From positions 23,549 through 78,146 of the forward strand of contig JAYEJJ010000221.1 of assembly GCA_034660495.1 (NCBI GenBank): 54,598 bases of DNA, in the 5' to 3' direction. Under the pieces are notes generated by a model, which made no database searches, had not been told where the DNA came from, and saw nothing but the letters and a program-made list of their open reading frames with translations. Origin of the DNA: Thermodesulfobacteriota bacterium (GTDB taxonomy: Bacteria; Desulfobacterota; Desulfobacteria; Desulfobacterales; Desulfobacteraceae). The position numbers and the translations under genes are program-made. Below, piece by piece: positions 6,269 to 36,329 of this stretch. The stretch's first letter is position 1. Each line of letters opens with the position of its first letter.

Positions 6269-6294
6269 TATAACGATAACGATAATATAACCGG

Positions 6295-6535
6295 CTTGAG
6301 CAACGTGCTCACAACAAAGATAGAAAGTCTGCCGGTATTACACGATTTTCTTGTAATGGCCATGCCCTTTCGGGCCCAACAAATGATAAAAGCCATCAGC
6401 TGCCAGTAATCACCAGAAAAAAAATTGTAATTGTTTACTGGAAACTGATTACTGAAGGCTTTTATATAACGGCCATGCCTTGACAGGCACAACAAAGCAT
6501 GAAAGCTGTTAGCTGACTACTGATGGCTTTCAAAC
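6295..6535. repeat. Three adjacent units of the mosaic hairpin repeat family (R1)
   Basis: Units at 6295-6329, 6355-6412 and 6453-6535. Each has the conserved flank cacaacaaag-atgaaag(c) (reverse of ctttcat-ctttgttgtg) around a short variable hairpin (gagcaacgtgctc; ggcccgaaagggc-type; gccttgacaggc). Confidence 0.8.
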
Positions 6536-6560
6536 AAATAAATTTGGGAAATAAAATGGT

Positions 6561-7058
6561 ATGAATTTTTTAAGCCGCATAAAAGCCCCTAGAGTTTTGA
6601 TGGTCGCAGGGATAATCCTGGTTGTTCTATCAGCCTCGGGCCTGGTCTGGCATTTTTTTTTAAAGGGACATGAAGAAAATCATTCAGACAGGGCATCTTC
6701 TGCAGATATTGCTTCGTCTGATGAAGAGATTGGTCAAAAAAGGGAAGGTTTGGCTGCAGATATTATTAAGCTGGATCCCTTTAACAATATAAAACTTCAG
6801 CCCGGCGGGAATATGGATCAGCTGGACTTGGAGATCGCCCTGGAACTGGCTGACCCCGGCATGAGAAAATCGGTTGAAACCATTGTGTTTAAAATCCGTG
6901 AAGTTGTTGAAAGGGAATCGGCCAAAAAAAGCTGGATGGAATTAAGAACTCCGGCCGGGAAGCTGTCTTTGAAGTATACCCTGTTAGACAGAATTAATGG
7001 GGTGCTTTCGGAGGCAAAAATTAACAATGTCTATTTTACACATTTAATCATGAAGTGA
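6561..7058 (+). CDS. fliL: Flagellar basal-body-associated protein FliL
   Basis: N-terminal TM helix and a FliL-like pattern (IKLDPFNNIKL...LDLEIALELADP...IREVVERE...INNVYFTHLIM). Located upstream of fliM. Confidence 0.75.
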   Translation: MNFLSRIKAPRVLMVAGIILVVLSASGLVWHFFLKGHEENHSDRASSADIASSDEEIGQKREGLAADIIKLDPFNNIKLQPGGNMDQLDLEIALELADPGMRKSVETIVFKIREVVERESAKKSWMELRTPAGKLSLKYTLLDRINGVLSEAKINNVYFTHLIMK

Positions 7059-7068
7059 TTTAGAAATT

Positions 7069-8049
7069 ATGAGTGACATACTATCCCAGGATGAAGTAGA
7101 CAGTCTGCTGGCAGGACTTGATTCCGGCGATGTAGAAGCAGAAAAAGACGCAGATGCACCGGAGCCGGAAGGTATTGTTGCCTATGATTTTACAAGCCAG
7201 GACAAGGTGGTGCGGGCAAGGATGCCCACCTTTGACGTTATCAATGAACGGCTGGCCAGGGAAATCAGGGCCAGCATGTCCACGCTGCTGCAGACCAATG
7301 TAGATGTGACAGCCAATCCTCTGGATACCCTCAAGTTCTCAGAATTTGTCCGAAGTCTGCCTGTTCCCACAAGCCTTCATGTGTTCCGTATGGAGCCTTT
7401 AAGGGGGCACGGGCTGGTGGTGCTGGAGAGCCAGCTTGTTTACAACCTCATTGATACCTTTTTCGGGGGTGAAGGCTCAGGCCAGGCCAGGGTGGAGGGC
7501 AGGGAGTTTACAGCCATTGAAGAGGTAATGATCAAAAAGGTGGTGGTGGCCTGTCTTAAGGATATTGAAGTTGCCTGGTACCCCATTGAACCGGTAAAGA
7601 CCACCCTGGTCCGATCTGAAATGAACCCTCAGTTTGCCGCTGTGGTCCTGCCCACAGACCTTGTGATTGTAACGCGGTTTGAGATTGAGCTGGAGCAGGC
7701 TGCCGGCACCCTTGTCATATGTCTGCCCTATTCCATGATCGAACCGTTAAGAGCAAAGCTGGCATCAGGCTTTCAGGCTGAAACCGAGGAGATTGATCTG
7801 ACGTGGCGGACCATACTCAAGGAAATTATTCTCCAGTCTTCCGTGGATCTGCGCATACAGCTGGGCACTGCGGACATAACAGGAGAGCGCCTTATTTATA
7901 TGCAGAAAGGGGATGTGATTCAGCTGGATCATGATGCAAAGGATCCCTTGATGGGATTTGTGGGCGGGCTGCCCAAACTCAAAGGATTTGCCGGTGTAAA
8001 ACGGGGCATGCAGGCGTTTAAGATCGAAAAAACGATAATCAGAAAATAA
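7069..8049 (+). CDS. fliM: Flagellar motor switch protein FliM
   Basis: N-terminal CheY-P docking peptide MSDILSQDEVDSLLAG. FliM-sized body followed by fliN. Confidence 0.95.
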   Translation: MSDILSQDEVDSLLAGLDSGDVEAEKDADAPEPEGIVAYDFTSQDKVVRARMPTFDVINERLAREIRASMSTLLQTNVDVTANPLDTLKFSEFVRSLPVPTSLHVFRMEPLRGHGLVVLESQLVYNLIDTFFGGEGSGQARVEGREFTAIEEVMIKKVVVACLKDIEVAWYPIEPVKTTLVRSEMNPQFAAVVLPTDLVIVTRFEIELEQAAGTLVICLPYSMIEPLRAKLASGFQAETEEIDLTWRTILKEIILQSSVDLRIQLGTADITGERLIYMQKGDVIQLDHDAKDPLMGFVGGLPKLKGFAGVKRGMQAFKIEKTIIRK

Positions 8050-8793: not shown

Positions 8794-8853
8794 GCATTTT
8801 TCGTTGCCGCCGGGCCATGTTCATGGGCCGCCCATGCCGGTTTATATGAAAGG
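8794..8853. repeat. R1-family hairpin repeat inserted between fliO and fliP
   Basis: gcatttttcgttg-ccgccgggccatgttcatgggccg-cccatgccggtttatatgaaagg matches the copies at 15261-15315 and 27428-27486. Confidence 0.75.
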
Positions 8854-11870: not shown

Positions 11871-11973
11871 GTGGGGTGGGGTCAGGCTTCGGTTATTGCG
11901 CTTTTGTTTAAATTTGCCTTTAAACAGAGTCCTTTGTCAAAAGCGTAATAACCGAAGCCTGACCCCGTTGATC
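11871..11973. repeat. ~100-bp palindromic element (P2), copy 1, between flhB and flhA
   Basis: 29-bp arms ggggtcaggcttcggttattgcgcttttg / caaaagcgtaataaccgaagcctgacccc with one G-T mismatch and a ~40-nt loop. A second copy is at 34469-34570. Confidence 0.85.
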
Positions 11974-12028
11974 AACAAACCAGCCGATTTGGCCGAAGTT
12001 ATGACCAAGCCCAAAAACAGGAGTGTGA

Positions 12029-15260: not shown

Positions 15261-15315
15261 CTTCGTTGTGGCCGGGTCGGTGATCATGGTCCGGCCATGC
15301 CGGTTATATAAAATA
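15261..15315. repeat. R1-family hairpin repeat between flhF and flhG
   Basis: cttcgttgtg-gccgggtcggtgatcatggtccggc-catgccggttatataaaa. Near-identical core to 27428-27486. Confidence 0.8.
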
Positions 15316-17111: not shown

Positions 17112-19085
17112 ATGTCTGATACGACTACAGATGACGATCTTGTCTCCCAGGATGATATTGACAATCGTCTGGATTCCGGTCAAAATACGGGTTCTGACGG
17201 GGCAGGCAAAGAAGAAGAGTTTGGAGAGCTTTCTCAGGATGATATAGACAGCCTTTTAAACGGCTCGTCCATGGGCAGCGGATCTTCAGATGATGATTCT
17301 GGTGACATGGATGACGATGATTTTGAGCTGGTTTCCCAGGATGACATAGACAGCCTTCTGGAGGAATCCTCATCCAGAGATCTGGAAGATTCATCTGATG
17401 GGCCTGACCTCATTGATTCAGAATCCATGGAAGACACTGAAGAAGATCTGATTTCCCAGGATGACATAGACAGTCTGCTGGAGGATTCATCTGCCGTTGA
17501 TCTGGAGGTGTCGTCTGCCGATTCTGATCTCAGTGATCAGGAAAGCATGGAAGATACTGAAGAAGAACTGGTTTCCCAGGATGACATAGACAGCCTGCTG
17601 GAGGGTTCGTCTGATGTTGATCTGGAATCGTCATCTGCCGATCCTGATCTCAGTGAACAGGAAAGCATGGAAGACACTGAAGAAGAACTGGTTTCCCAGG
17701 ATGACATAGACAGCCTGCTGGAGGGTTCGTCTGATGTTGATCTGGAATCGTCATCTGCCGATTCTGATCTCAGTGAACAGGAAAGCATGGAAGACACTGA
17801 AGAAGAGCGGGTTTCCCAGGATGACATAGACAGCCTGCTGGAGGATTCATCTGCTGATGATCTGGAAGTGTCATCACACGGCCCTGACCTCAGTGGTACG
17901 GAAAAGGGGAGCAGGGGACCTGAATCCGGCAATGAGGATGTGATTGACGAATCCCAGGGAATTGACATTCAGGATTGTCTGATTACCCAGGAAGTGCTGG
18001 ATCAGTTGATAAAGGAAGATGAAGAAGCTGAAAACCAGGCGGATGATGAAATAGAACCATCCCTGGAGACAGAAGCGGTTCCGGAACAGGATCAGCAGCC
18101 GGATTTAAAAGAAGAACCCGATGCACAGGTTGATTCAGAAGAAGAGCCGGATTTACAGCCTGTTTCAGGCGCAGAGACGGACGCTGAAGCAGATTCGGTT
18201 CCACTGGAAAATCAGGGGGAAGATGTCAGCCAGAATGATATTGATGCACTGCTGGATGATCCCGATGATGACATGACTGATGATGAGGAAAGCGGAAAAT
18301 CACTGATTTCTCATAAGGATATAGACTCTCTGCTGGGAAGCACTGAGGAGGATGATGAAGATTTTCTCGGCGATGTTGATTCAGATGGTTCCTTTGGTGA
18401 CACTTCACTGGGGCTTGATGATGACGATCAGGAAATTGAACCTGATGACGCAGGTGAAGAGTTTTATCCCTACGATGAAGCAGAAAAAAGTGATCAGGTT
18501 GTATTGGAGGCTGGAGAGGACACTCAGGTCGAGAAAGACACAGACGTCGGGAAAGAAAAAGAAAAACGTACTGGAGAAAAAAAATTCTCGTTAAAAAAAG
18601 TATTGGTTTTTGCGTCCATATGCATTGTTTTATCTGTTTCAGGTGCGTCTTATTATATTTTAAACGCCATGAAAGATAAAAGCGAGTCTGAAAATCAGGT
18701 TGTTTTGGAAGAACCGGTACAGTCAGACGGGCCTGAGGTGGAAACCGTGGAGATTGATCTTCGGAAAACTGCAAATCTGCCTGATTCCGGCACTGTGGAC
18801 CTGAATGGGTTTTTTGTGCTTTCTCCAACTGAAGAGAGCGGGTTTGTCTATGTTTCCGCCGACCTTTCAATAGATTATTCCCGTGGCAGAGCCCTTTCCG
18901 AGATAAATAAACATATGGCCCTTTACAGGGATATAATTTATGATGCCATCAGTCATGCCATTGCCAGGGATACCAATGCAGTGTCTGAAAAAGAGCTGCT
19001 TTCTGCAGTAAAAAAAGCGCTGAACAGCGCGCTTCCTGACAACTATATCGAAAAGGTCAGTTTTACACGGTTTAAAACTGGATAG
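17112..19085 (+). CDS. FliL-domain membrane protein with a long acidic N-terminal arm bearing 9-10 SQDDIDSLL (CheY-docking-like) repeats
   Basis: RBS agaggg. Repeated [LIV]xSQDDIDSLL motifs. One TM helix (VLVFASICIVLSVSGASYYILNA). The C-terminal ~130 aa match the FliL pattern (FFVLSP...ADLSIDYS...YRDIIYDAI...IEKVSFTRF). Confidence 0.65.
   Translation: MSDTTTDDDLVSQDDIDNRLDSGQNTGSDGAGKEEEFGELSQDDIDSLLNGSSMGSGSSDDDSGDMDDDDFELVSQDDIDSLLEESSSRDLEDSSDGPDLIDSESMEDTEEDLISQDDIDSLLEDSSAVDLEVSSADSDLSDQESMEDTEEELVSQDDIDSLLEGSSDVDLESSSADPDLSEQESMEDTEEELVSQDDIDSLLEGSSDVDLESSSADSDLSEQESMEDTEEERVSQDDIDSLLEDSSADDLEVSSHGPDLSGTEKGSRGPESGNEDVIDESQGIDIQDCLITQEVLDQLIKEDEEAENQADDEIEPSLETEAVPEQDQQPDLKEEPDAQVDSEEEPDLQPVSGAETDAEADSVPLENQGEDVSQNDIDALLDDPDDDMTDDEESGKSLISHKDIDSLLGSTEEDDEDFLGDVDSDGSFGDTSLGLDDDDQEIEPDDAGEEFYPYDEAEKSDQVVLEAGEDTQVEKDTDVGKEKEKRTGEKKFSLKKVLVFASICIVLSVSGASYYILNAMKDKSESENQVVLEEPVQSDGPEVETVEIDLRKTANLPDSGTVDLNGFFVLSPTEESGFVYVSADLSIDYSRGRALSEINKHMALYRDIIYDAISHAIARDTNAVSEKELLSAVKKALNSALPDNYIEKVSFTRFKTG
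17330..17900. repeat. 120-bp tandem repeat (~4.5 units) within the acidic FliL-like gene
   Basis: Phase-locked units begin at 17341, 17461, 17581, 17701 and 17821 (atgacatagacag...). Units 17581-17700 and 17701-17820 differ at only a few bases. Confidence 0.9.
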
Positions 19086-26915: not shown

Positions 26916-26930
26916 GTTTTTTATTTAAAA

Positions 26931-27014
26931 GCCATCAGTACTCAGCTAAAAGCTAACAGCTAACGGCTAACAGCTGTCGATGATCATGGGCCGGCCATGC
27001 CGATTATATGAAAA
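26931..27014. repeat. R1-family mosaic repeat (agct-stutter plus hairpin unit)
   Basis: gccatcagtactcagctaaaagctaacagctaacggctaacagctg followed by tcgatgatcatgggccggccatgccgattatatgaaaag. Confidence 0.75.
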
Positions 27015-27304: not shown

Positions 27305-27396
27305 TTTATATGAAAGCCATCAGCTGTCAGCCATCAGTACTCAGCTAAAAGCTTTCATGCTTTGTTGTGTCTGTCAAGGCATAGACGTTTATAAGA
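27305..27396. repeat. R1-family mosaic repeat
   Basis: tttatatgaaagccatcagctgtcagccatcagtactcagctaaaagctttcatgctttgttgtgtctgtcaaggcatagacgtttataag. Confidence 0.8.
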
Positions 27397-27427
27397 AACA
27401 CTCGTCAAAGTATTATCATTGGCGGCG

Positions 27428-27486
27428 TTTCATTCTTCGTTGTGGCCGGATCGATGATCATGGTCCGGCCATGCCGGTTATGAAGA
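27428..27486. repeat. R1-family hairpin repeat
   Basis: tttcattcttcgttgtg-gccggatcgatgatcatggtccggc-catgccggttatgaag. Confidence 0.8.
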
Positions 27487-29388: not shown

Positions 29389-30573
29389 ATGAAACAGTAT
29401 TATCGCATCCTGGTGCATGGATGTCTGATTTTTTTCTGGATCAGCCTGTGCAGTGCTGCAGCAGTCAGTTCCGCCCAGGGTAAAGCCGGTATTGCAGACA
29501 ATGAAATAAGCATGACATCAAATGAAATACGTTTTGCCGAAAGAGATACAGGGATTGCCGAAAGAGATATAGATAGTGCAAAAGGTGATACAGGTCGTCC
29601 AAAAAGCGATATAGATATTTCGGAAAATGATTCAGGCGCTGCACAGAGAGATGTCAGTACAGAGAATCCAGCCCTGAACGTAAGAATTGAGGTCAGCCAG
29701 TCAGCAGAGGTGAATTTTAGAAAAATTTATTTAAAAGAAATTGCTGACATTAATGCGTCAAAATTTCTAAAGCAGCAGATTCAGACCATTGATCTTGGGT
29801 TTGCCCCGAAATTCGGAGAAGTAAAAGGTTTATCCAGGGATCAGGTTATATCCAGGATCAGATCCTGCCCTGGCCTGCCCCATGACATGGATCTGCAGGT
29901 GCCTGAACAGATATTTGTAAAACGGGCCTGCCAGCGTATTCCAGAAACCCGGTTCAAGAATCTGTTTATGGATTACGTCAAAGAGCGGGTAGAGGGAAAA
30001 GAATTTCATGTCAGGGATTTTGAGGTCAGGAATTCCGGCCTTTACAAAAAAGGGGATACGTCTCTTGTCCTGGTCTCAGACCATACCAGGGATGTAAAGG
30101 GAAGGCTGACCCTTTACGTAAATGTGGATATTGACGGAGAAAAGTGCGACAGGGCAGCCCTTTCAGGCATTGTAGATGTGTTTGACCATGTGGTGACCGC
30201 CGCAAGAACCTTAAGACGGGGCAGTATTGTTTCCGCGTCCGACCTTTGCGTTGAAAAAATGAATATTTCAAATATTTATGGTCATTACCTTTCCTGCAAA
30301 GAGGATGCTGTGGGCCTGGCCCTGAAGTCCAGTGTCCGTCAGGGCAGGCATATCAGACAGAAAATTCTGGAAGATCCCCCTATGGTCTACAAGGGAAAAA
30401 TGGTGCAGATCATTGCCTCCTCAGGCAATCTCTGCATAACCACCTCAGGTGTTGCCAGGGAAGACGGGAGATTGAACGACCAGATCCCGGTTGAAAATAT
30501 ACGCTCAGGAAGGATTGTGCACGGCGTGGTGATCGGGAAATCCATAGTTAAAGGGCTTTACCAGGCCTATTAA
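29389..30573 (+). CDS. flgA: P-ring assembly chaperone FlgA, with a long N-terminal extension
   Basis: Signal peptide. C-terminal FlgA pattern (RTLRRGSIVSASDL...GKMVQIIASSGNLCITTSGVAREDGRLNDQIPVENIRSGRIVHGVV). 394 aa. Confidence 0.8.
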   Translation: MKQYYRILVHGCLIFFWISLCSAAAVSSAQGKAGIADNEISMTSNEIRFAERDTGIAERDIDSAKGDTGRPKSDIDISENDSGAAQRDVSTENPALNVRIEVSQSAEVNFRKIYLKEIADINASKFLKQQIQTIDLGFAPKFGEVKGLSRDQVISRIRSCPGLPHDMDLQVPEQIFVKRACQRIPETRFKNLFMDYVKERVEGKEFHVRDFEVRNSGLYKKGDTSLVLVSDHTRDVKGRLTLYVNVDIDGEKCDRAALSGIVDVFDHVVTAARTLRRGSIVSASDLCVEKMNISNIYGHYLSCKEDAVGLALKSSVRQGRHIRQKILEDPPMVYKGKMVQIIASSGNLCITTSGVAREDGRLNDQIPVENIRSGRIVHGVVIGKSIVKGLYQAY

Positions 30574-30574
30574 C

Positions 30575-30696
30575 TGAAAGCTGATGACTTTATATGAAAG
30601 TGTTAAGTTTTAAGTGTTAAGTTTTAAGCCAGTGACGGCAGACGGCTTTCATGTTTTGTTGTGCCTGTCAAGGCATGGCCGTTTATATGAAAGTCG
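30575..30696. repeat. R1-family mosaic repeat
   Basis: ctgaaagctgatgactttatatgaaag, a gtgttaagttttaag duplication, then ggctttcatgttttgttgtgcctgtcaaggcatggccgtttatatgaaagtcg. Confidence 0.8.
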
Positions 30697-30705
30697 TGTA
30701 ATCCC

Positions 30706-30870
30706 GGCCGCCGATTCGGGGTATTGCCCTACGCTCATAGAGCCAAGGCTCCTCTTCGAGTCTCACAAATCACAAGGATTTGCTCCGAGGCGAGCGGCAG
30801 CTGTTCAGTGTATCCGCACCTCACAGCTGCCGCTCAAAACCGCTACGGGCAAAACCCCGAACCGGCGGCC
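30706..30870 (+). repeat. ~165-nt structured element (S-element), copy A, upstream of flgH
   Basis: 24-nt terminal arms ggccgccgattcggggtattgccc / gggcaaaaccccgaaccggcggcc. Internal hairpin gagcggcagctgt...acagctgccgctc. Homologous to 31892-32057 in the opposite orientation. Confidence 0.8.
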
Positions 30871-30877
30871 TCTGTAT

Positions 30878-30957
30878 CGGACTTTCATGCTTTGTTGTGA
30901 GCATGCTGCTCATGGTCGTTAGTACTAAAGGCTGAAGGCTGAAGGCTTTCATTTAAA
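30878..30957. repeat. R1-family mosaic repeat
   Basis: cggactttcatgctttgttgtgagcatgctgctcatggtcgtt followed by aaggctgaaggctgaaggctttcat. Confidence 0.8.
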
Positions 30958-30989
30958 GATCGAAATACAGAAATAATACAGGAGGAGGC

Positions 30990-31712
30990 ATGCAGAAAAA
31001 AACAGCTGTTTTTACGGCAATTGTATTGACCGTTCTGATATCGGGATGCGCGTCTGTTGAAAAAGAAAATCCTTTAACGGTTCTGCCCGAGGGCATTTCC
31101 GCACAGCCTGCACTTCAGCCCCAGTACGCAATGCTTCCCCCGTCTGAAGGCTCTTTGTGGACCGAGGCCAGTGATCCGCTCTTTGAGGACACAAAGGCAA
31201 GAAATCCAGGAGATACCCTGGTGGTGGATATTGTTGAAAATTCATCCTCAAGAATGGATGTGAATACGGAAACGAGCAGGGAATCCAATATGAATATCGG
31301 GGTGCCCAATTTTTTCGGGGAAATGCGCAAATACGAGGCCCTGGCCAATCCAGTCAGAAAAGGCATGCTGGCAGACAAACTTGTCGGAACGACCTACACC
31401 AATGAATTTGAAGGAGAAGCCTCAAGTGACCGCATGGGTCAGGTTACTGCTTCCATTTCCGCCAGGATAACAGAGGTGCTTCCCAATGGAAATTTAAGCC
31501 TTTACGGCCGGCGGGCCATGAAGGTGAACAATGAGGTTCAGTATATTGTGGTCTCAGGCGTTGTAAGGCCCCAGGATATTTCATCTGACAACAGAGTGCA
31601 ATCAACCTATCTGGCAGATTCAAGCATTGAGTATTTTGGCCGGGGCGCTTTGGCAGACAAGCAGAAACCCGGATGGGGCACCCGGCTGTTTGATAATTTC
31701 TGGCCGTTTTAA
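30990..31712 (+). CDS. flgH: Flagellar L-ring lipoprotein FlgH
   Basis: Lipobox LISGC. Conserved FlgH body (GDTLVVDIVENSSS...ITEVLPNGNLSLYGRRAMKVNNEVQYIVVSGVVRPQDI). AGGAGGAGG RBS. Confidence 0.95.
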   Translation: MQKKTAVFTAIVLTVLISGCASVEKENPLTVLPEGISAQPALQPQYAMLPPSEGSLWTEASDPLFEDTKARNPGDTLVVDIVENSSSRMDVNTETSRESNMNIGVPNFFGEMRKYEALANPVRKGMLADKLVGTTYTNEFEGEASSDRMGQVTASISARITEVLPNGNLSLYGRRAMKVNNEVQYIVVSGVVRPQDISSDNRVQSTYLADSSIEYFGRGALADKQKPGWGTRLFDNFWPF

Positions 31713-31740
31713 GATTTGAAATTCTGTAATTCGATTAACG

Positions 31741-31858
31741 TCCATGCCTTGACAGGCACAACAAAGCATGAAAGCTGTTAGCTGTTAGCTTTTAGCTGAA
31801 TACTGAAGGCTGATGGCTTTCATATAAACGGCATGAGCAGCGTGCTCACAACGTAGAT
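31741..31858. repeat. R1-family mosaic repeat (two units)
   Basis: tccatgccttgacaggcacaacaaagcatgaaagc, an agct-stutter, then ggctttcatataaacggcatgagcagcgtgctcacaacgtagata. Confidence 0.8.
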
Positions 31859-31891
31859 AGGGTCGTAGACGCGAAGCCAAGTCCAATTAGA

Positions 31892-32057
31892 GGCAGCCGG
31901 TTCGGGGTTTTGTCCGTAGCGGTTTTGAGCGGCAGCAGTGAGCACGGATGCTCAAAACAGCTGCCGCTCGCATCAAGGCAAATCCTGGATGATTTGCGAG
32001 GGCCGAAGGCAAGCGACTGCTTACATGAGCGGAGGACAAAACCCCGAATCGGCTGCC
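31892..32057 (-). repeat. ~165-nt structured element (S-element), copy B, downstream of flgH and inverted relative to copy A
   Basis: The reverse complement aligns with copy A along its full length. Arms ggcagccgattcggggttttgtcc / ggacaaaaccccgaaccggctgcc. The same internal gagcggcagc...gctgccgctc hairpin is present. Confidence 0.8.
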
Positions 32058-32094
32058 GGCGCACCACGACTTTCATATAAAACAGGGTGGAATT

Positions 32095-33357
32095 ATGAAT
32101 AAAAAGAATTGTTTTATAACAGATACGTATGTTTCCAGGTACATTTTCCATGGGGTCAGGTATATTTCCCGTGGCGTTAAGTACATTTCCCATGGCGTTA
32201 TATCCCTTTCCCACGGATGCTTAACTCTTCTGACTCCCTGTTCTATTTTTTTATGTTCCGGTAAATTTGTTTTTTACGGGTTTCTGGTGATTTGTCTGTT
32301 CTGTATTGATCCGGCCTGGGGGGCACGGATAAAGGACCTTGCTGCCATCAAGGGGATTAGAACCAATCAGCTGACAGGATACGGCCTGATTGTGGGGCTT
32401 GACGGAACCGGAGACAAGGCAGGCACAGATTTTACCACCCAGGCACTGGCCAATATGATGGAGAGAATGGGCATTCATGTGGACAAAAATTCACTCAGTG
32501 TGAAAAATGTGGCAGCCGTGATGCTCACCGCCAATATCCCGCCCTTTGCACGGATTGGGAATAAAATTGATATCATGGCCTCTTCCATTGGCGATGCCAA
32601 AAGTCTCATGGGCGGCACACTTTTATTAACCCCGCTCAAGGGGGTGGATGGAAAGGTCTATGCCCTGGGACAAGGTCCGGTGACCATAGGCGGAATGGGC
32701 GCCGGGGGGGCCGGCGGCACCACACAGAAGAATCATCTCCAGGTGGCAAGAATAGCCAATGGCGCAACCATTGAAAGGGAGATCCCTTTCCGGCTGGATG
32801 GTAAGGAATTTTTAACCCTGTCTTTGTTTAATCCTGATTTTACAACGGCCAAACGCGTTTCTGATACCATTAATGCCTCCATTGGCGAGGGGATTGCCGA
32901 AGCAGTGGATTCCAGCGCCCTCCGCCTGAAAATTCCGGAAAATATGCGAGAGGCAGATGTGGCTGAATTCATCGCTGATATTGAAACATTAAGCGTTGTG
33001 CCGGATACACGGGCCAAGATCGTTGTCAACGAAAAAACAGGCACCGTTGTTATCGGAGAAAATGTGACCATTTCAACAGTTGCTGTGGCCCACGGCAATC
33101 TGACCGTGACCATTAAAAAATCCAGTGACGTGGTCCAGCCCCAGCCGCTGGCCGGGGGAGAAACCGTTGTCACACCGGAAAATGAAATAACCATGGAGGA
33201 AGAGGATGTCAAGGTCATGCCCCTGCCGGGCAGTTCAACCATTGGGGAACTGGTCAAGGGGCTGAACGCCATCGGGGTTTCCCCAAGGGATCTGATCAGC
33301 ATCCTTCAGAGCATCAAGGCATCTGGTGCGCTTCAGGCAGAACTTGAAATAATTTAG
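32095..33357 (+). CDS. flgI: Flagellar P-ring protein FlgI, with an atypical ~55-aa N-terminal extension
   Basis: The mature region ARIKDLAAIKGIRTNQLTGYGLIVGLDGTGD... is classic FlgI. The only in-frame canonical start is ATG 32095. Confidence 0.9.
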   Translation: MNKKNCFITDTYVSRYIFHGVRYISRGVKYISHGVISLSHGCLTLLTPCSIFLCSGKFVFYGFLVICLFCIDPAWGARIKDLAAIKGIRTNQLTGYGLIVGLDGTGDKAGTDFTTQALANMMERMGIHVDKNSLSVKNVAAVMLTANIPPFARIGNKIDIMASSIGDAKSLMGGTLLLTPLKGVDGKVYALGQGPVTIGGMGAGGAGGTTQKNHLQVARIANGATIEREIPFRLDGKEFLTLSLFNPDFTTAKRVSDTINASIGEGIAEAVDSSALRLKIPENMREADVAEFIADIETLSVVPDTRAKIVVNEKTGTVVIGENVTISTVAVAHGNLTVTIKKSSDVVQPQPLAGGETVVTPENEITMEEEDVKVMPLPGSSTIGELVKGLNAIGVSPRDLISILQSIKASGALQAELEII

Positions 33358-33875: not shown

Positions 33876-34400
33876 CTAGGTGAGTTTGAGAACGCCGATG
33901 ATGATGCCGGCCATGGTCACGGATAATCCAAAAGACCAGATCATGAACCGGTCAATTCTTTTGGTGAGGAGCTCAAAGCGGTTGTTCATGGTTTCAGTCA
34001 GTTTATCAAAGCGCTTATCAATCTGTAGGAACCGTTCATCCTGCTTCTCAAACCTTTTGTCCTGCTTCTCAAACCTTTTGTCCTGCTTCTCAAACCTTTT
34101 GTCCTGCTTCTCAAACCTTTTGTCCTGCTGTTCAAACCTTTTGTCCTGCTGTTCAAACCTTTTGTCCTGCTGTTGAAAGCGTTTTTCATGCATTTCAAAC
34201 CCCTGTTTCATCTGCTCAAACCCCTGTTTCATCAGCTCCCGCTGGTTCTTCAGCTCTTCTTCTACCCGGACCATGCGCTCTCTGAGCTCTATTTCATAGA
34301 CGTGGGGCGGTTTTGCAAGACTTTGATCGCTGAGCCACTGGCTGATGTTTTTGCGGACAAATTACCCTATTTCCTGAAAATCCTCATTTGCTAAGGCCAT
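33876..34400 (-). pseudogene. Tail-anchored coiled-coil protein paralog with an in-frame TAA at codon 13. The remaining ORF 33876-34274 could still be expressed from an internal Met.
   Basis: Collinear with the intact paralog at 35643-36062. GAA in the paralog is TAA here (34362-34364 on the + strand). Heptad DKRFE(Q/K)Q repeats and a C-terminal TM helix (FMIWSFGLSVTMAGIIIGVLKLT). Confidence 0.6.
34032..34178. repeat. 21-bp tandem repeat x7 (encodes the DKRFE(Q/K)Q heptads)
   Basis: ccttttgtcctgcttctcaaa / ccttttgtcctgctgttcaaa units in perfect 21-nt register. Confidence 0.9.
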
Positions 34401-34468
34401 GGCTGCTCTCCTTTTATTTTGGGGTATGGTCACTGCATTTTCGGGTTTGATTATAACATCTGCCACCC

Positions 34469-34570
34469 TGGGGTGGGGTCAGGCTTCGGTTATTGCGCTT
34501 TTGTTTTAATTTGTCTTTAAACAGAGTCCTTTGTCAAAAGCGTAATAACCGAAGCCCGACCCCGTTAATC
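34469..34570. repeat. ~100-bp palindromic element (P2), copy 2
   Basis: Near-identical to 11871-11973. Confidence 0.85.
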
Positions 34571-34678
34571 ACTCTTATTTGTACAACGGGAGCAGGGCTT
34601 TTTCAAGGGAAAATTTTTTTTCTGTTTTAACATCAGATTTATTCAAAAGTCATTGTTATTGCAATACTATTGCAGTTT

Positions 34679-35642: not shown

Positions 35643-36062
35643 TCAGGTGAGTTTGAGAACGCCGATGATGATGCCGGCCATGGTCACGGACAATCCAAAA
35701 GACCAGATCATGAACCGGTCGATTCTTTTGGTAAGGAGCTCAAACCGGTTGTTCATGATTTCAGTCAGTTTATCAAAACGTTTATTCTGCTGATCAAAGC
35801 GTTTATCCTGTTGATCAAAGCGTTTGTCCTGCTGATCAAAGCGTTTTTCATGCATTTCAAACCCCTGTTTCATCTGCTCAAACCCCTGTTTCATCAGCTC
35901 CCGCTGGTTCTTCAGCTCTTCTTCTACCCGGACCATGCGTTCTCTGAGCTCTATTTCATAGACGTGGGGCGGTTTTGCAAGGCTTTGATCGCTGAGCCAC
36001 TGGCTGAGATTTTTGCGGACAAATTCACCGATCTCATTGAAATCCTCATTTGCTAAGGCCAT
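35643..36062 (-). CDS. Tail-anchored coiled-coil protein (intact paralog, 139 aa)
   Basis: Start chosen at MALANEDF with an AAGGAGAG RBS. DKRFDQQ heptads and a C-terminal TM helix. The longer track ORF (to 36224) lacks an RBS. Confidence 0.65.
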   Translation of the reverse strand: MALANEDFNEIGEFVRKNLSQWLSDQSLAKPPHVYEIELRERMVRVEEELKNQRELMKQGFEQMKQGFEMHEKRFDQQDKRFDQQDKRFDQQNKRFDKLTEIMNNRFELLTKRIDRFMIWSFGLSVTMAGIIIGVLKLT

Positions 36063-36329
36063 GGCTGCTCTCCTTTTACAGGTTTTTCTGTTTTCTATTG
36101 TGGAGGTTGCTTTTCTGTTCTGTCTGTTTTGCGGCATGGATATTGCTTTCTTATTTGTACAACGGGGACAATGCTTTTTCAAGGGGAAATTTTTTCCCTG
36201 TTTTAAAATTAAAGTGTGTACCACATGACTTTGCGGTATTTCCGGTTTCGATAAAGTTGATTTGACACATCATAAAGCCAATTTCTACCGCAAAGTCAAA
36301 TGAAACACGCTTTAGTTTGCTTCAGAACT

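Follow-up and report, generated by a model that had tools for sequence, protein, structure and literature searches.

The flagellar L-ring gene flgH on a Desulfobacteraceae contig from a brine metagenome (JAYEJJ010000221.1, assembly GCA_034660495.1) is bracketed by two inverted, highly structured elements of about 165 nt, here called A and B. We analysed a 54.6-kb stretch of this contig (54,598 nucleotides, referred to below as the window). On balance, A and B are likely to be independent insertions of one gene-less, non-autonomous family that is mobilised as single-stranded DNA (ssDNA) by an enzyme of the HUH/Y1 type. Members of the family are numerous in one brine and salt-lake lineage of Desulfobacteraceae. 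The alignment of its copies indicates that the 165-nt element is the core of a larger asymmetric unit, and flgH would be a bystander gene whose bracketing by A and B is coincidental.

Elements A and B and the units that carry them

Element A (30706-30870, plus strand) and the reverse complement of element B (31892-32057) are identical at 133 of the 167 columns of a global alignment (79.6%), in agreement with an original prediction, made from the window sequence itself, that two inverted ~165-nt elements of about four-fifths identity surround flgH. The limits given there are too narrow, since conservation runs on at both sides and the similarity of A and B continues into the flanks (87% over 228 columns). 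The terminal 24-nt arms of B are complementary at 23 of 24 positions and those of A at 22 of 24, so the single A-C mismatch described for both copies is exact for B, whereas A has an A.A mismatch besides the A.C one. The internal hairpin (gagcggcagc...gctgccgctc), predicted at 10-13 bp, has 13 bp in A and ~10 bp in B. Both compensatory differences predicted for the terminal stem are present in the sequence and in the alignment, one being ggcCgcc/ggcGgcc in A versus ggcAgcc/ggcTgcc in B and the other ttgCcc/ggGcaa versus ttgTcc/ggAcaa (together, alignment pairs 18/179 and 37/161 in the set of 44 copies described below). The arm motif has four matches in the window against 0.00 expected. RNA fold energies of A and B on both strands range from −90.6 to −101.4 kcal/mol, compared with about −52 to −62 for shuffled sequences (z-scores of −9.5 to −10.0 for all four strands, with 0 of 200 shuffles as good), and a chance origin of the arms and the fold is excluded. 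These are the only two family copies in the window, whether it is searched with mismatches allowed, with nhmmer or with an unfiltered covariance model.

Alignment of 31-44 copies places both elements within longer units. We call 'top' the strand of the unit that corresponds to the minus strand of the window for A and to the plus strand for B. The principal features, in which LE and RE denote the left and right ends of the unit, are as follows.

30706-30870, minus strand: core of element A, a 24-bp closing stem (P1) and a junction of three to four hairpins; the minus strand folds best (−101.4 kcal/mol, versus −92.4 on the plus strand) and scores 173.9 bits with the covariance model
31892-32057, plus strand: core of element B; the plus strand folds best (−97.2 kcal/mol, versus −90.6 on the minus strand) and scores 177.4 bits
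30682-30918, minus strand: predicted full unit A (~237 nt), with LE module, long RE hairpin containing the 165-nt core, and terminal CTTTCATATAA(A)
31829-32081, plus strand: predicted full unit B (~253 nt), with LE module (small hairpin at 31835-47), 17-nt optional insert of the GGTCGTAGACGCGAAGCC type at about 31861-78, long RE hairpin and terminal CTTTCATATAA(A)
30899-30911, minus strand: small LE hairpin of unit A, GAGCAGCATGCTC, with conserved CCATG and CACAACAAAG on either side
30683-30693, minus strand: RE terminal motif of unit A, CTTTCATATAA (TTATATGAAAG on the plus strand)
30919-30924, minus strand: target motif TACTAA beside the LE of A, a (T)ATAA variant that forms the tail of a degenerate heptamer-cargo relative at 30919-30959

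Read along the top strand, (T)ATAA is followed at the unit boundary by CGGCCATG, a small hairpin with variable sequence, CACAACAAAG, an optional 17-nt GGTCGTAGACGCGGAGCC, AAGTCGAATTAGA, the 165-nt core and GGGATTACACGACTTTCATATAA, after which the flank begins. Left flanks of the copies diverge just before (T)ATAA and the adjoining CGGCCATG, and right flanks just after CTTTCATATAA. The limits of unit A, taken from the copy alignment, match a 237-nt segment that is missing from a related-strain contig (X4, below). In the LE hairpin the stem sequence differs among copies and the flanking sequence is conserved. The right end forms one long hairpin, in which a P0 stem (up to ~10 bp, ATGAAAGTCG/CGACTTTCAT) and the 24-bp P1 together close the junction of three or four hairpins that constitutes the 165-nt element. 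Units across the family measure about 210-255 nt and contain no genes. Their cores fall into classes of 165 nt and 143 nt, the latter lacking one 22-nt hairpin, and copies also differ by 1-nt indels. The outer ends (CGGCCATG... and ...CGACTTTCATATAA) are not reverse complements of each other, and all inverted repeats are internal.

Of the 29 copies that extend to the RE in a separate alignment (A3), 28 keep CTTTCATATAA and one has CTTTCTTATAA, and TATAA is present at the right end of every one of them; the estimate of RE conservation is based on this alignment and not on the 40 full units we collected, as these were gathered with a pattern requiring an RE motif that ends in ATATAA. ATAA directly precedes the LE in 38 of the 40 full units (two of these with one or two extra A between), and the motif in the left flank is variable (TATAA, AATAA, GATAA or ACTAA). 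Eight of the 40 depart from the TATAA of the RE in the left motif or in the base that precedes it. Neither a target-site duplication, for which a check had been proposed, nor any other repeat of flank sequence was found among the 40 full units. Because the left motif varies and the right TATAA is constant, the right-end motif belongs to the element and nothing is duplicated; units are inserted directly 3' of (T)ATAA, in AT-rich DNA between genes.

Covariation and strand asymmetry among 44 copies

We mapped the minimum-energy structure of one copy onto an alignment of 44 distinct copies. Standard pairs occupy 94.5% of the 2732 cells, against 34-43% when pairing partners are slid by 1-3 columns, and double-sided changes occur at 12 pairs (49 cells), a level reached by 0 of 500 shuffles; these values are to be read with the caveat that most copies are recent and similar and that the structure derives from one of the 44. 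The P1 closing stem is 98.5% paired and includes seven compensated pairs. Compensation takes several forms: changes from U-A to C-G and from G-C to A-U occur, a G-C pair of the tip hairpin is reversed to C-G, both arms have lost a single base in step (GGGG/CCCC to GGG/CCC), and three pairs of hairpin P5 have been swapped (GCAGCCC/GGGCTGC versus GCAAATC/GATTTGC). It had been envisaged that the covariation might vanish once more copies were aligned; instead it is stronger in the 44.

The cells that are not Watson-Crick pairs are distributed very unevenly between strands. Read on the top strand they comprise 81 G.U at 15 sites versus 3 A.C at three sites, and since the wobbles are nearly all G.U on the top strand, it is therefore one single strand that folds. 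The top strand also folds 7-9 kcal/mol better than the bottom strand, and it folds as DNA too (z = −8.6 and −7.4). These observations point to a single-stranded top-strand stage, as either DNA or RNA. The proposal that selection acts on a folded RNA or ssDNA rather than on coding is thus borne out by the 12 double-sided pairs and the G.U asymmetry across 44 copies, which indicate that a folded single strand is what has been selected, or has at least survived. The open reading frames (ORFs) called across the elements at 30614-30922 and 31846-32214, already regarded as artefacts in the original prediction, contain no Pfam family, and the copies differ by the 22-nt and 1-nt indels described above; the elements therefore do not encode protein.

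The same data bear on whether the family might consist of classical MITEs (miniature inverted-repeat transposable elements), that is, derivatives of a DDE transposon that move by cut-and-paste, with either the 24-nt arms or ATGAAAGTCG/CGACTTTCAT serving as terminal inverted repeats (TIRs). The long, perfect or near-perfect inverted arms would suit such an origin, as would the small size, multiple copies, intergenic location and polymorphism of the elements. We nevertheless consider it very unlikely. In every copy, conservation extends beyond both candidate TIR pairs and takes in the linkers and the entire LE module, and neither pair of arms therefore marks the end of the unit. At its true outer ends (CGGCCATG... 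and ...TTTCATATAA) the unit has neither inverted repeats nor a duplication. Moreover, compensatory changes in the arms and strand-specific wobbles are unexpected for a double-stranded protein-binding site, and the wobble asymmetry does not fit one. Correia/NEMIS, ERIC, RUP and BOX elements have true TIRs and usually target duplications (TA for Correia). The family resembles these elements in its length of ~100-250 nt, long hairpins, location in operon spacers, polymorphism among strains and occurrence in long and short versions that arise by internal deletion, here the 165-nt and 143-nt cores, and differs from them in having no TIRs or duplication at its real ends and in pairing that is selected on one strand only. 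Structured bacterial MITEs are reviewed in PMC10969869 and PMC3184786.

Copy number, distribution and the flgH locus

A gapped pattern placed on the middle of the terminal stem, when run against bacterial contigs with one genome per species, returned 39 stretches, of which 34 are true copies: 31 in the Desulfobacteraceae metagenome-assembled genome (MAG) BLK6-3.bin.268 and three in the Desulfobacteraceae MAG SMAG_U9157. The other five are chance matches in unrelated sequence (L005, L024, L026, L036 and L037, from Eggerthellaceae, Adhaeribacter, Ferruginibacter, Draconibacterium and Rubrivivax hosts). A second pattern, on the outer stem outside the core, added 13 further, more divergent copies from JGI metagenomes. 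By nhmmer, the collected loci contain about 55 copies, in addition to decayed or truncated fragments, and the window only two. Many of the MAG copies lie at contig ends. Related sequence occurs in sediment, oil-field and salt-lake samples. All copies are intergenic, and no orientation bias relative to flanking genes is seen: the top strand agrees with the upstream gene in 18 cases and opposes it in 18, and agrees with the downstream gene in 20 and opposes it in 14. The units are thus no fixed component of host transcripts. Relative to flgH, A lies in antisense and B in sense orientation. In a run of unknown type (X16), a 218-nt contig aligning to 30796-30921 is 100% identical to the right half of unit A, carries A-specific variants and, after ...CATGGTCGTTA, continues into a different flank (TACAAAAAGGG...); it therefore represents an A-subtype copy at another locus or in another organism.

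Database comparisons returned no relative. Rfam gave no match in the whole window at gathering scores, and at E ≤ 10 the best match on 30500-32300 was an unrelated Streptococcus sRNA at 18.2 bits against a cutoff of 72; as a positive control, the same search detected HEARO at 150 bits in locus L040. The proposed covariance and Rfam check thus assigned the elements to no known RNA family. Unit B had no match among PLSDB plasmids and INPHARED phages (BLAST, distant mode), and the arm pattern had none in IMG/VR, where 20 matches to the 16-mer CACGACTTTCATATAA are due to chance, nhmmer finding no copy in them. No paper in the literature matched four diagnostic sequence strings, and we found nothing specific on repeats or insertion sequences of Desulfobacteraceae. 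As far as these tools show, the family appears to be undescribed. Its kind is familiar, namely small, non-autonomous, hairpin-forming intergenic mobile repeats, and the fallback suggestion of MITE- or REP-like elements (REP, repetitive extragenic palindromic) was essentially right, given that the family is multi-copy, intergenic and polymorphic for presence.

The genes and resident repeats around A and B are listed below.

29389-30573, plus strand: flgA (P-ring chaperone), upstream neighbour (Pfam PF13144, E = 5.4e-33)
30590-30681, minus strand: resident sister element with heptamer-repeat cargo and the same LE and RE as A; abuts the RE of A head-to-tail
30990-31712, plus strand: flgH (flagellar L-ring protein), between the two insertions (Pfam PF02107, E = 5.5e-58)
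31734-31828, plus strand: resident sister element with heptamer cargo and terminal CTTTCATATAA(A) at 31817-31828; B inserted after it
32095-33357, plus strand: flgI (P-ring protein), downstream neighbour (Pfam PF02119, E = 3.7e-139; domain from residue 78)

By Pfam, the order is flgF, flgG, flgA, A, flgH, B, flgI and a rod-binding (FlgJ-like) protein, and the remainder of the window's left half is likewise flagellar (fliK-like, flgD, flgE, fliL, fliM, fliP, fliR, flhB and flhA). The sister elements share the LE module and the CTTTCATATAA RE of the A/B family, with heptamer repeats in place of the 165-nt core. On the basis of these ends and the heptamer cargo they were assigned in the window at 27305-27400, 30590-30681, 31734-31828, the 6288-6541 region and 26917-27007. 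Their heptamers are of the types GCTGTTA, GGCTGAA and AAGTGTT, and heptamer tracts are also found in the flanks of MAG copies (TTTCTTG x4 in L040 and CTTAAAA x3 in L029). Contig depth at 30590-30681 is 40-150 times that of the flanks in four metagenomes. Relative to single-copy flgH, the summed contig depth of the 31740-31806 unit is ~270 times in X1, 276 in X3 and 534 in X4, and that of the 30601-30667 unit is 40-50 times in X1, X3 and X4; in the source sample, the depth of the 165-nt cores is no more than about 1.3 to 5 times that of flgH. A and B each lie directly behind the RE of a resident sister element, and stacking of this kind recurs in 23 head-to-tail RE-LE junctions in which one TATAA is common to both elements. 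Both flgH spacers were hit because they already held heptamer-cargo residents ending in TATAA, which served as landing pads.

The elements are polymorphic at this locus. A contig of a related strain in X4 joins 30679 to 30917 and so skips 237 nt (30680-30916, with a 4-nt ambiguity), which correspond to the predicted unit A. In X3, one contig joins 30582 to 30935 (skipping 30583-30934) and another, which lacks unit B, joins 31818 to 32081 through 21 additional letters of heptamer repeat. The flgH genes of these related strains are ~5% diverged.

According to the original proposal, the inverted pair could be organised around flgH as an invertible switch, in which recombination between A and B would flip the gene and uncouple L-ring synthesis. 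A and B are indeed inverted and bracket exactly one gene. Against this, the family comprises 55 or more copies scattered at unrelated loci, and in related strains flgH is present without one or both of the two; A and B are better regarded as independent insertions into spacers that were already occupied by related repeats. The inverted orientation was looked for as contig joints in the source-sample runs X1 and X2, in which no A-B joint between opposite strands is present, although contigs drop rare variants and a low-frequency inversion of flgH could escape such a check. In X4, the only joint of this type (30684/32079) connects a B-like copy with a repeated flank, and the strain concerned has no A at this locus. 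Identity between the cores is no more than 79.6%, and their longest common exact run, ~23 nt, is at the lower limit for RecA-type recombination. No recombinase gene lies beside A or B, where the neighbours are flgF, flgG, flgA, flgI and the rod-binding protein. Thus neither the two orientations nor the recombinase that characterise switches of the fim/hin type were found in the contigs and neighbouring genes, and we regard flgH inversion as most improbable.

Proposed mobility as single-stranded DNA, a possible RNA role of the core, and related systems

Members of IS200/IS605 and their gene-less derivatives, the palindrome-associated transposable elements (PATEs), insert downstream of a transposon-associated motif (TAM), cause no duplication and carry LE and RE stem-loops on one strand (PMC10055086), and a related ssDNA chemistry has been proposed for REPs and their REP-associated tyrosine transposases (RAYTs; PMC8266576). 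On the reading that we favour, the top strand of the element would be mobilised as ssDNA in a 'peel-and-paste' manner. An HUH/Y1 enzyme acting in trans, similar to the TnpA of IS200/IS605 or to a RAYT, would recognise the folded ends and cut and rejoin at TATAA, making the element a PATE-like non-autonomous element. The compensatory changes and one-strand wobbles would then result from a requirement that the top strand fold. Since every unit ends in TATAA, new copies often come to lie directly behind a resident member, and head-to-tail arrays are built up. The 165-nt core may be an extension or cargo of the right-end hairpin, and might additionally function as RNA; it appears dispensable for mobility, since sister elements without it are far more numerous.

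The features expected of a PATE are largely present: the outer ends are not inverted repeats, there is no duplication, the motif occurs at both LE and RE, and the stem-loops are formed on one strand. The family also resembles the PATEs of Haloquadratum (PMC3119063) and Geobacillus (PMC10055086) in being small, gene-less and multi-copy, in inserting 3' of a short motif like that at its own right end, in its tandem and nested insertions and in being presumably mobilised in trans. It differs in its variable LE hairpin, which lies close to the target motif, in its unusually large branched right end and in sharing its ends with sister elements that carry heptamer tandem repeats. Also in favour of this reading, the MAG with the largest number of copies contains parts of the IS200/IS605 superfamily, namely an IscB gene with HEARO RNA and a Y1_Tnp gene (both detailed below).

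Several points weigh against this reading. The hairpins at the two ends of IS608-type elements are similar to one another, with ~19 nt between the LE hairpin and its cleavage site. Alike hairpins at such distances were not found here: the LE hairpin is 5-6 bp, variable and ~8 nt from TATAA, and the RE hairpin is a branched structure of ~190 nt. This mismatch weakens membership and does not exclude it, because the spacing of IS200/IS605 ends is known to be flexible (PMC10055086). An autonomous partner is also missing from the collected loci, as 310 kb of sequence contained no LE-RE pair more than 330 nt apart and no cognate TnpA, a phmmer search with a rough IS608-TnpA-like query giving nothing convincing. 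The MAG that carries most copies does contain a 235-aa Y1_Tnp gene (L035, 2400-3107, minus strand; PF01797, E = 1.3e-15), the only such gene seen, which was found among the motif-filtered ORFs sent to Pfam. It is flanked by inverted copies of a 20-mer, GGGGTCAGAGTAAAATTAAA, that is absent from the window, and because this flanking repeat differs from the ends of the family, the gene is probably not its partner. The wobble asymmetry, in turn, is equally expected for a top-strand RNA. Finally, the X3 and X4 joints taken alone could be deletions between repeated modules, although their agreement with boundaries drawn from 40 or more loci argues for insertion. We file the family as one that appears to work like a PATE, and not as a proven member of IS200/IS605. 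A decayed copy of the Y1_Tnp cassette, invaded by several small repeats that include one copy of the 165-nt family, is present at L039 3698-4854.

A possible but rather unlikely alternative, which overlaps with ssDNA mobility, is that the core is a functional RNA gene for which the mobile element is only the vehicle. Such an RNA could be an omega-RNA-like scaffold used in trans by a nuclease of the TnpB/IscB type, transcribed from the top strand and reading across the RE into the flank, or else some other small regulatory RNA. The core is not needed for mobility, and yet its fold is kept by covariation and strand-specific G.U pairs, and it lies directly against the right end, where the scaffolds of TnpB omega-RNAs lie. 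PATEs 'often encode omega-RNAs' that are used in trans (PMC10055086), and an IscB/HEARO locus exists in the same MAG. There, L040 (JAWOGI010000142.1) contains at 6860-7998 an IscB-type gene (Pfam RRXRR, E = 2.2e-71, and HNH) that runs off the end of the locus and is preceded by a HEARO omega-RNA (Rfam RF02033, 150 bits) with TATAA at the 5' edge of the match, on the same contig as two copies of the family. Element sequence is also present in the salt-lake metatranscriptome assemblies X19 and X20, in contigs without flanks.

Other observations count against a functional RNA. The cores have no Rfam match, HEARO included; a scan of the units for promoters and terminators found no promoter-like site in or next to them, the terminator-like matches being the small LE hairpins; and no nuclease gene is linked to any copy in the collected loci. 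In the RNA run X18 the ratio of element to flank depth is about 17-28, roughly what 30-50 DNA copies would give and hence compatible with DNA carry-over, in contigs that carry no strand information. No RNA run contained the copies of the window itself, apart from one run of unknown type. Furthermore, the copies are young and similar and the covariation events thus few. The family and the omega-RNAs of TnpB/IscB (HEARO, RF02033) are alike in having a structured module of ~150-200 nt that abuts an IS200/IS605-type end and a TAM-like motif, and differ in that the family matches neither HEARO nor any other Rfam entry and has no linked nuclease gene. A more specific version, which we hold to be doubtful, is that the core is a new structured RNA cargo of an ssDNA transposon, an orphan guide-RNA scaffold transcribed out of the RE and used in trans by a TnpB/IscB-like or still other nuclease; in that case each copy, of 50 or more, would direct the enzyme against its own empty site, next to TATAA.

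The copies might instead be domesticated repeats, similar to REPs and the bacterial interspersed mosaic elements (BIMEs) they form or to ERIC and Correia elements, that act in the processing, stabilisation or attenuation of operon mRNA and at this locus set the expression of flgH relative to flgA and flgI. All copies are intergenic, and both strands fold strongly as RNA (−90 to −101 kcal/mol), so that A and B would both form large hairpins in a flgA-flgH-flgI transcript. Unit B ends 14 nt before the annotated start codon of flgI, and the mosaic arrays of short modules resemble BIMEs. On the other hand, the copies show no orientation preference, yet the fold is selected on one strand only, and close relatives lack A or B at this operon. 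A role of this kind is in our view unlikely. In common with REP/BIME and RAYT (TnpA-REP) systems (PMC8266576, PMC3479197), the repeats are intergenic, highly repeated, hairpin-forming mosaics of short modules, a RAYT-like gene exists in the main MAG, and REPs are likewise thought to be handled as ssDNA by a Y1 HUH enzyme. REPs, however, are simple palindromes of 20-40 nt with a 5' GTAG beside a RAYT gene, an arrangement not found here, where the units are much larger (210-255 nt), asymmetric and not tied to the only RAYT-like gene seen (L035), which has its own, unrelated flanking 20-mer. Readings of the elements as attC-like sites or as group I or group II introns were dropped, the consensus motifs being absent and Rfam giving no match.

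Other repeats occur in the window and the collected loci. A third related module (window 8798-8844, 15261-15307, 26961-27007 and 27435-27481, and also the flanks of L002, L018, L032 and L039) has a longer hairpin, GTTGTG-GCCGGnTCgnTGAnCATGGnCCGGCC-ATGCCGGTTAT, and in the MAG it has a different cargo, bounded by GAAAC...GTTTC in place of GAAAG...CTTTC; this suggests a superfamily built as 'same ends, different cargo'. An unrelated palindromic repeat of ~103 nt (GGGGTCAGGCTTCGGTTATTGCG...CGTAATAACCGAAGCCTGACCCC) lies at 11872-11974 and 34469-34571 in the window (96% identity) and at L035 2176-2346 and L039 3750-3930, frequently beside a GGCCGAAGTTATGACCAAGCCC motif. It has the appearance of a second MITE-like family common to these genomes, and the covariance model matches it weakly (27-28 bits), as a generic long hairpin only. 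The 5' part of the annotated flgI ORF contains a 21-nt tandem repeat (32136-32213; 3-3.5 copies, 77-80% matches) upstream of the start of the FlgI domain, and in X3 a related strain carries one additional 21-nt unit at 32164. The annotated start or signal-peptide region of flgI may be wrong, or may differ among strains. In-frame tandem repeats are also found in the ORF at 17112-19085 (120-nt unit, about 5-6 copies, 17259-17978) and at the start of the FliK-like ORF (17-1813; 51-nt unit, three copies, 1-153). Downstream of the flgJ-like gene, a segment of ~300-500 nt is duplicated ~1.7 kb apart at 84-91% identity (33878-34407 versus 35645-36069 and 34573-34633 versus 36149-36209).

For annotation, the ORFs called across A and B should be dropped, and the flgA-flgH and flgH-flgI spacers are to be treated as repeat arrays. 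Assemblies of these Desulfobacteraceae break at this family, as the many copies at contig ends indicate. The family is a clean natural example of covariation combined with strand-specific wobbles, the signature expected of HUH-type transposition, and its modular design of same ends with different cargo, either heptamer repeats or the 165-nt hairpin, makes it a convenient system in which to study the role of the cargo. Should the core turn out to be an RNA that is used in trans, it would constitute a new class of guide-like RNA; if not, the family would be one more of the MITE-like kind.

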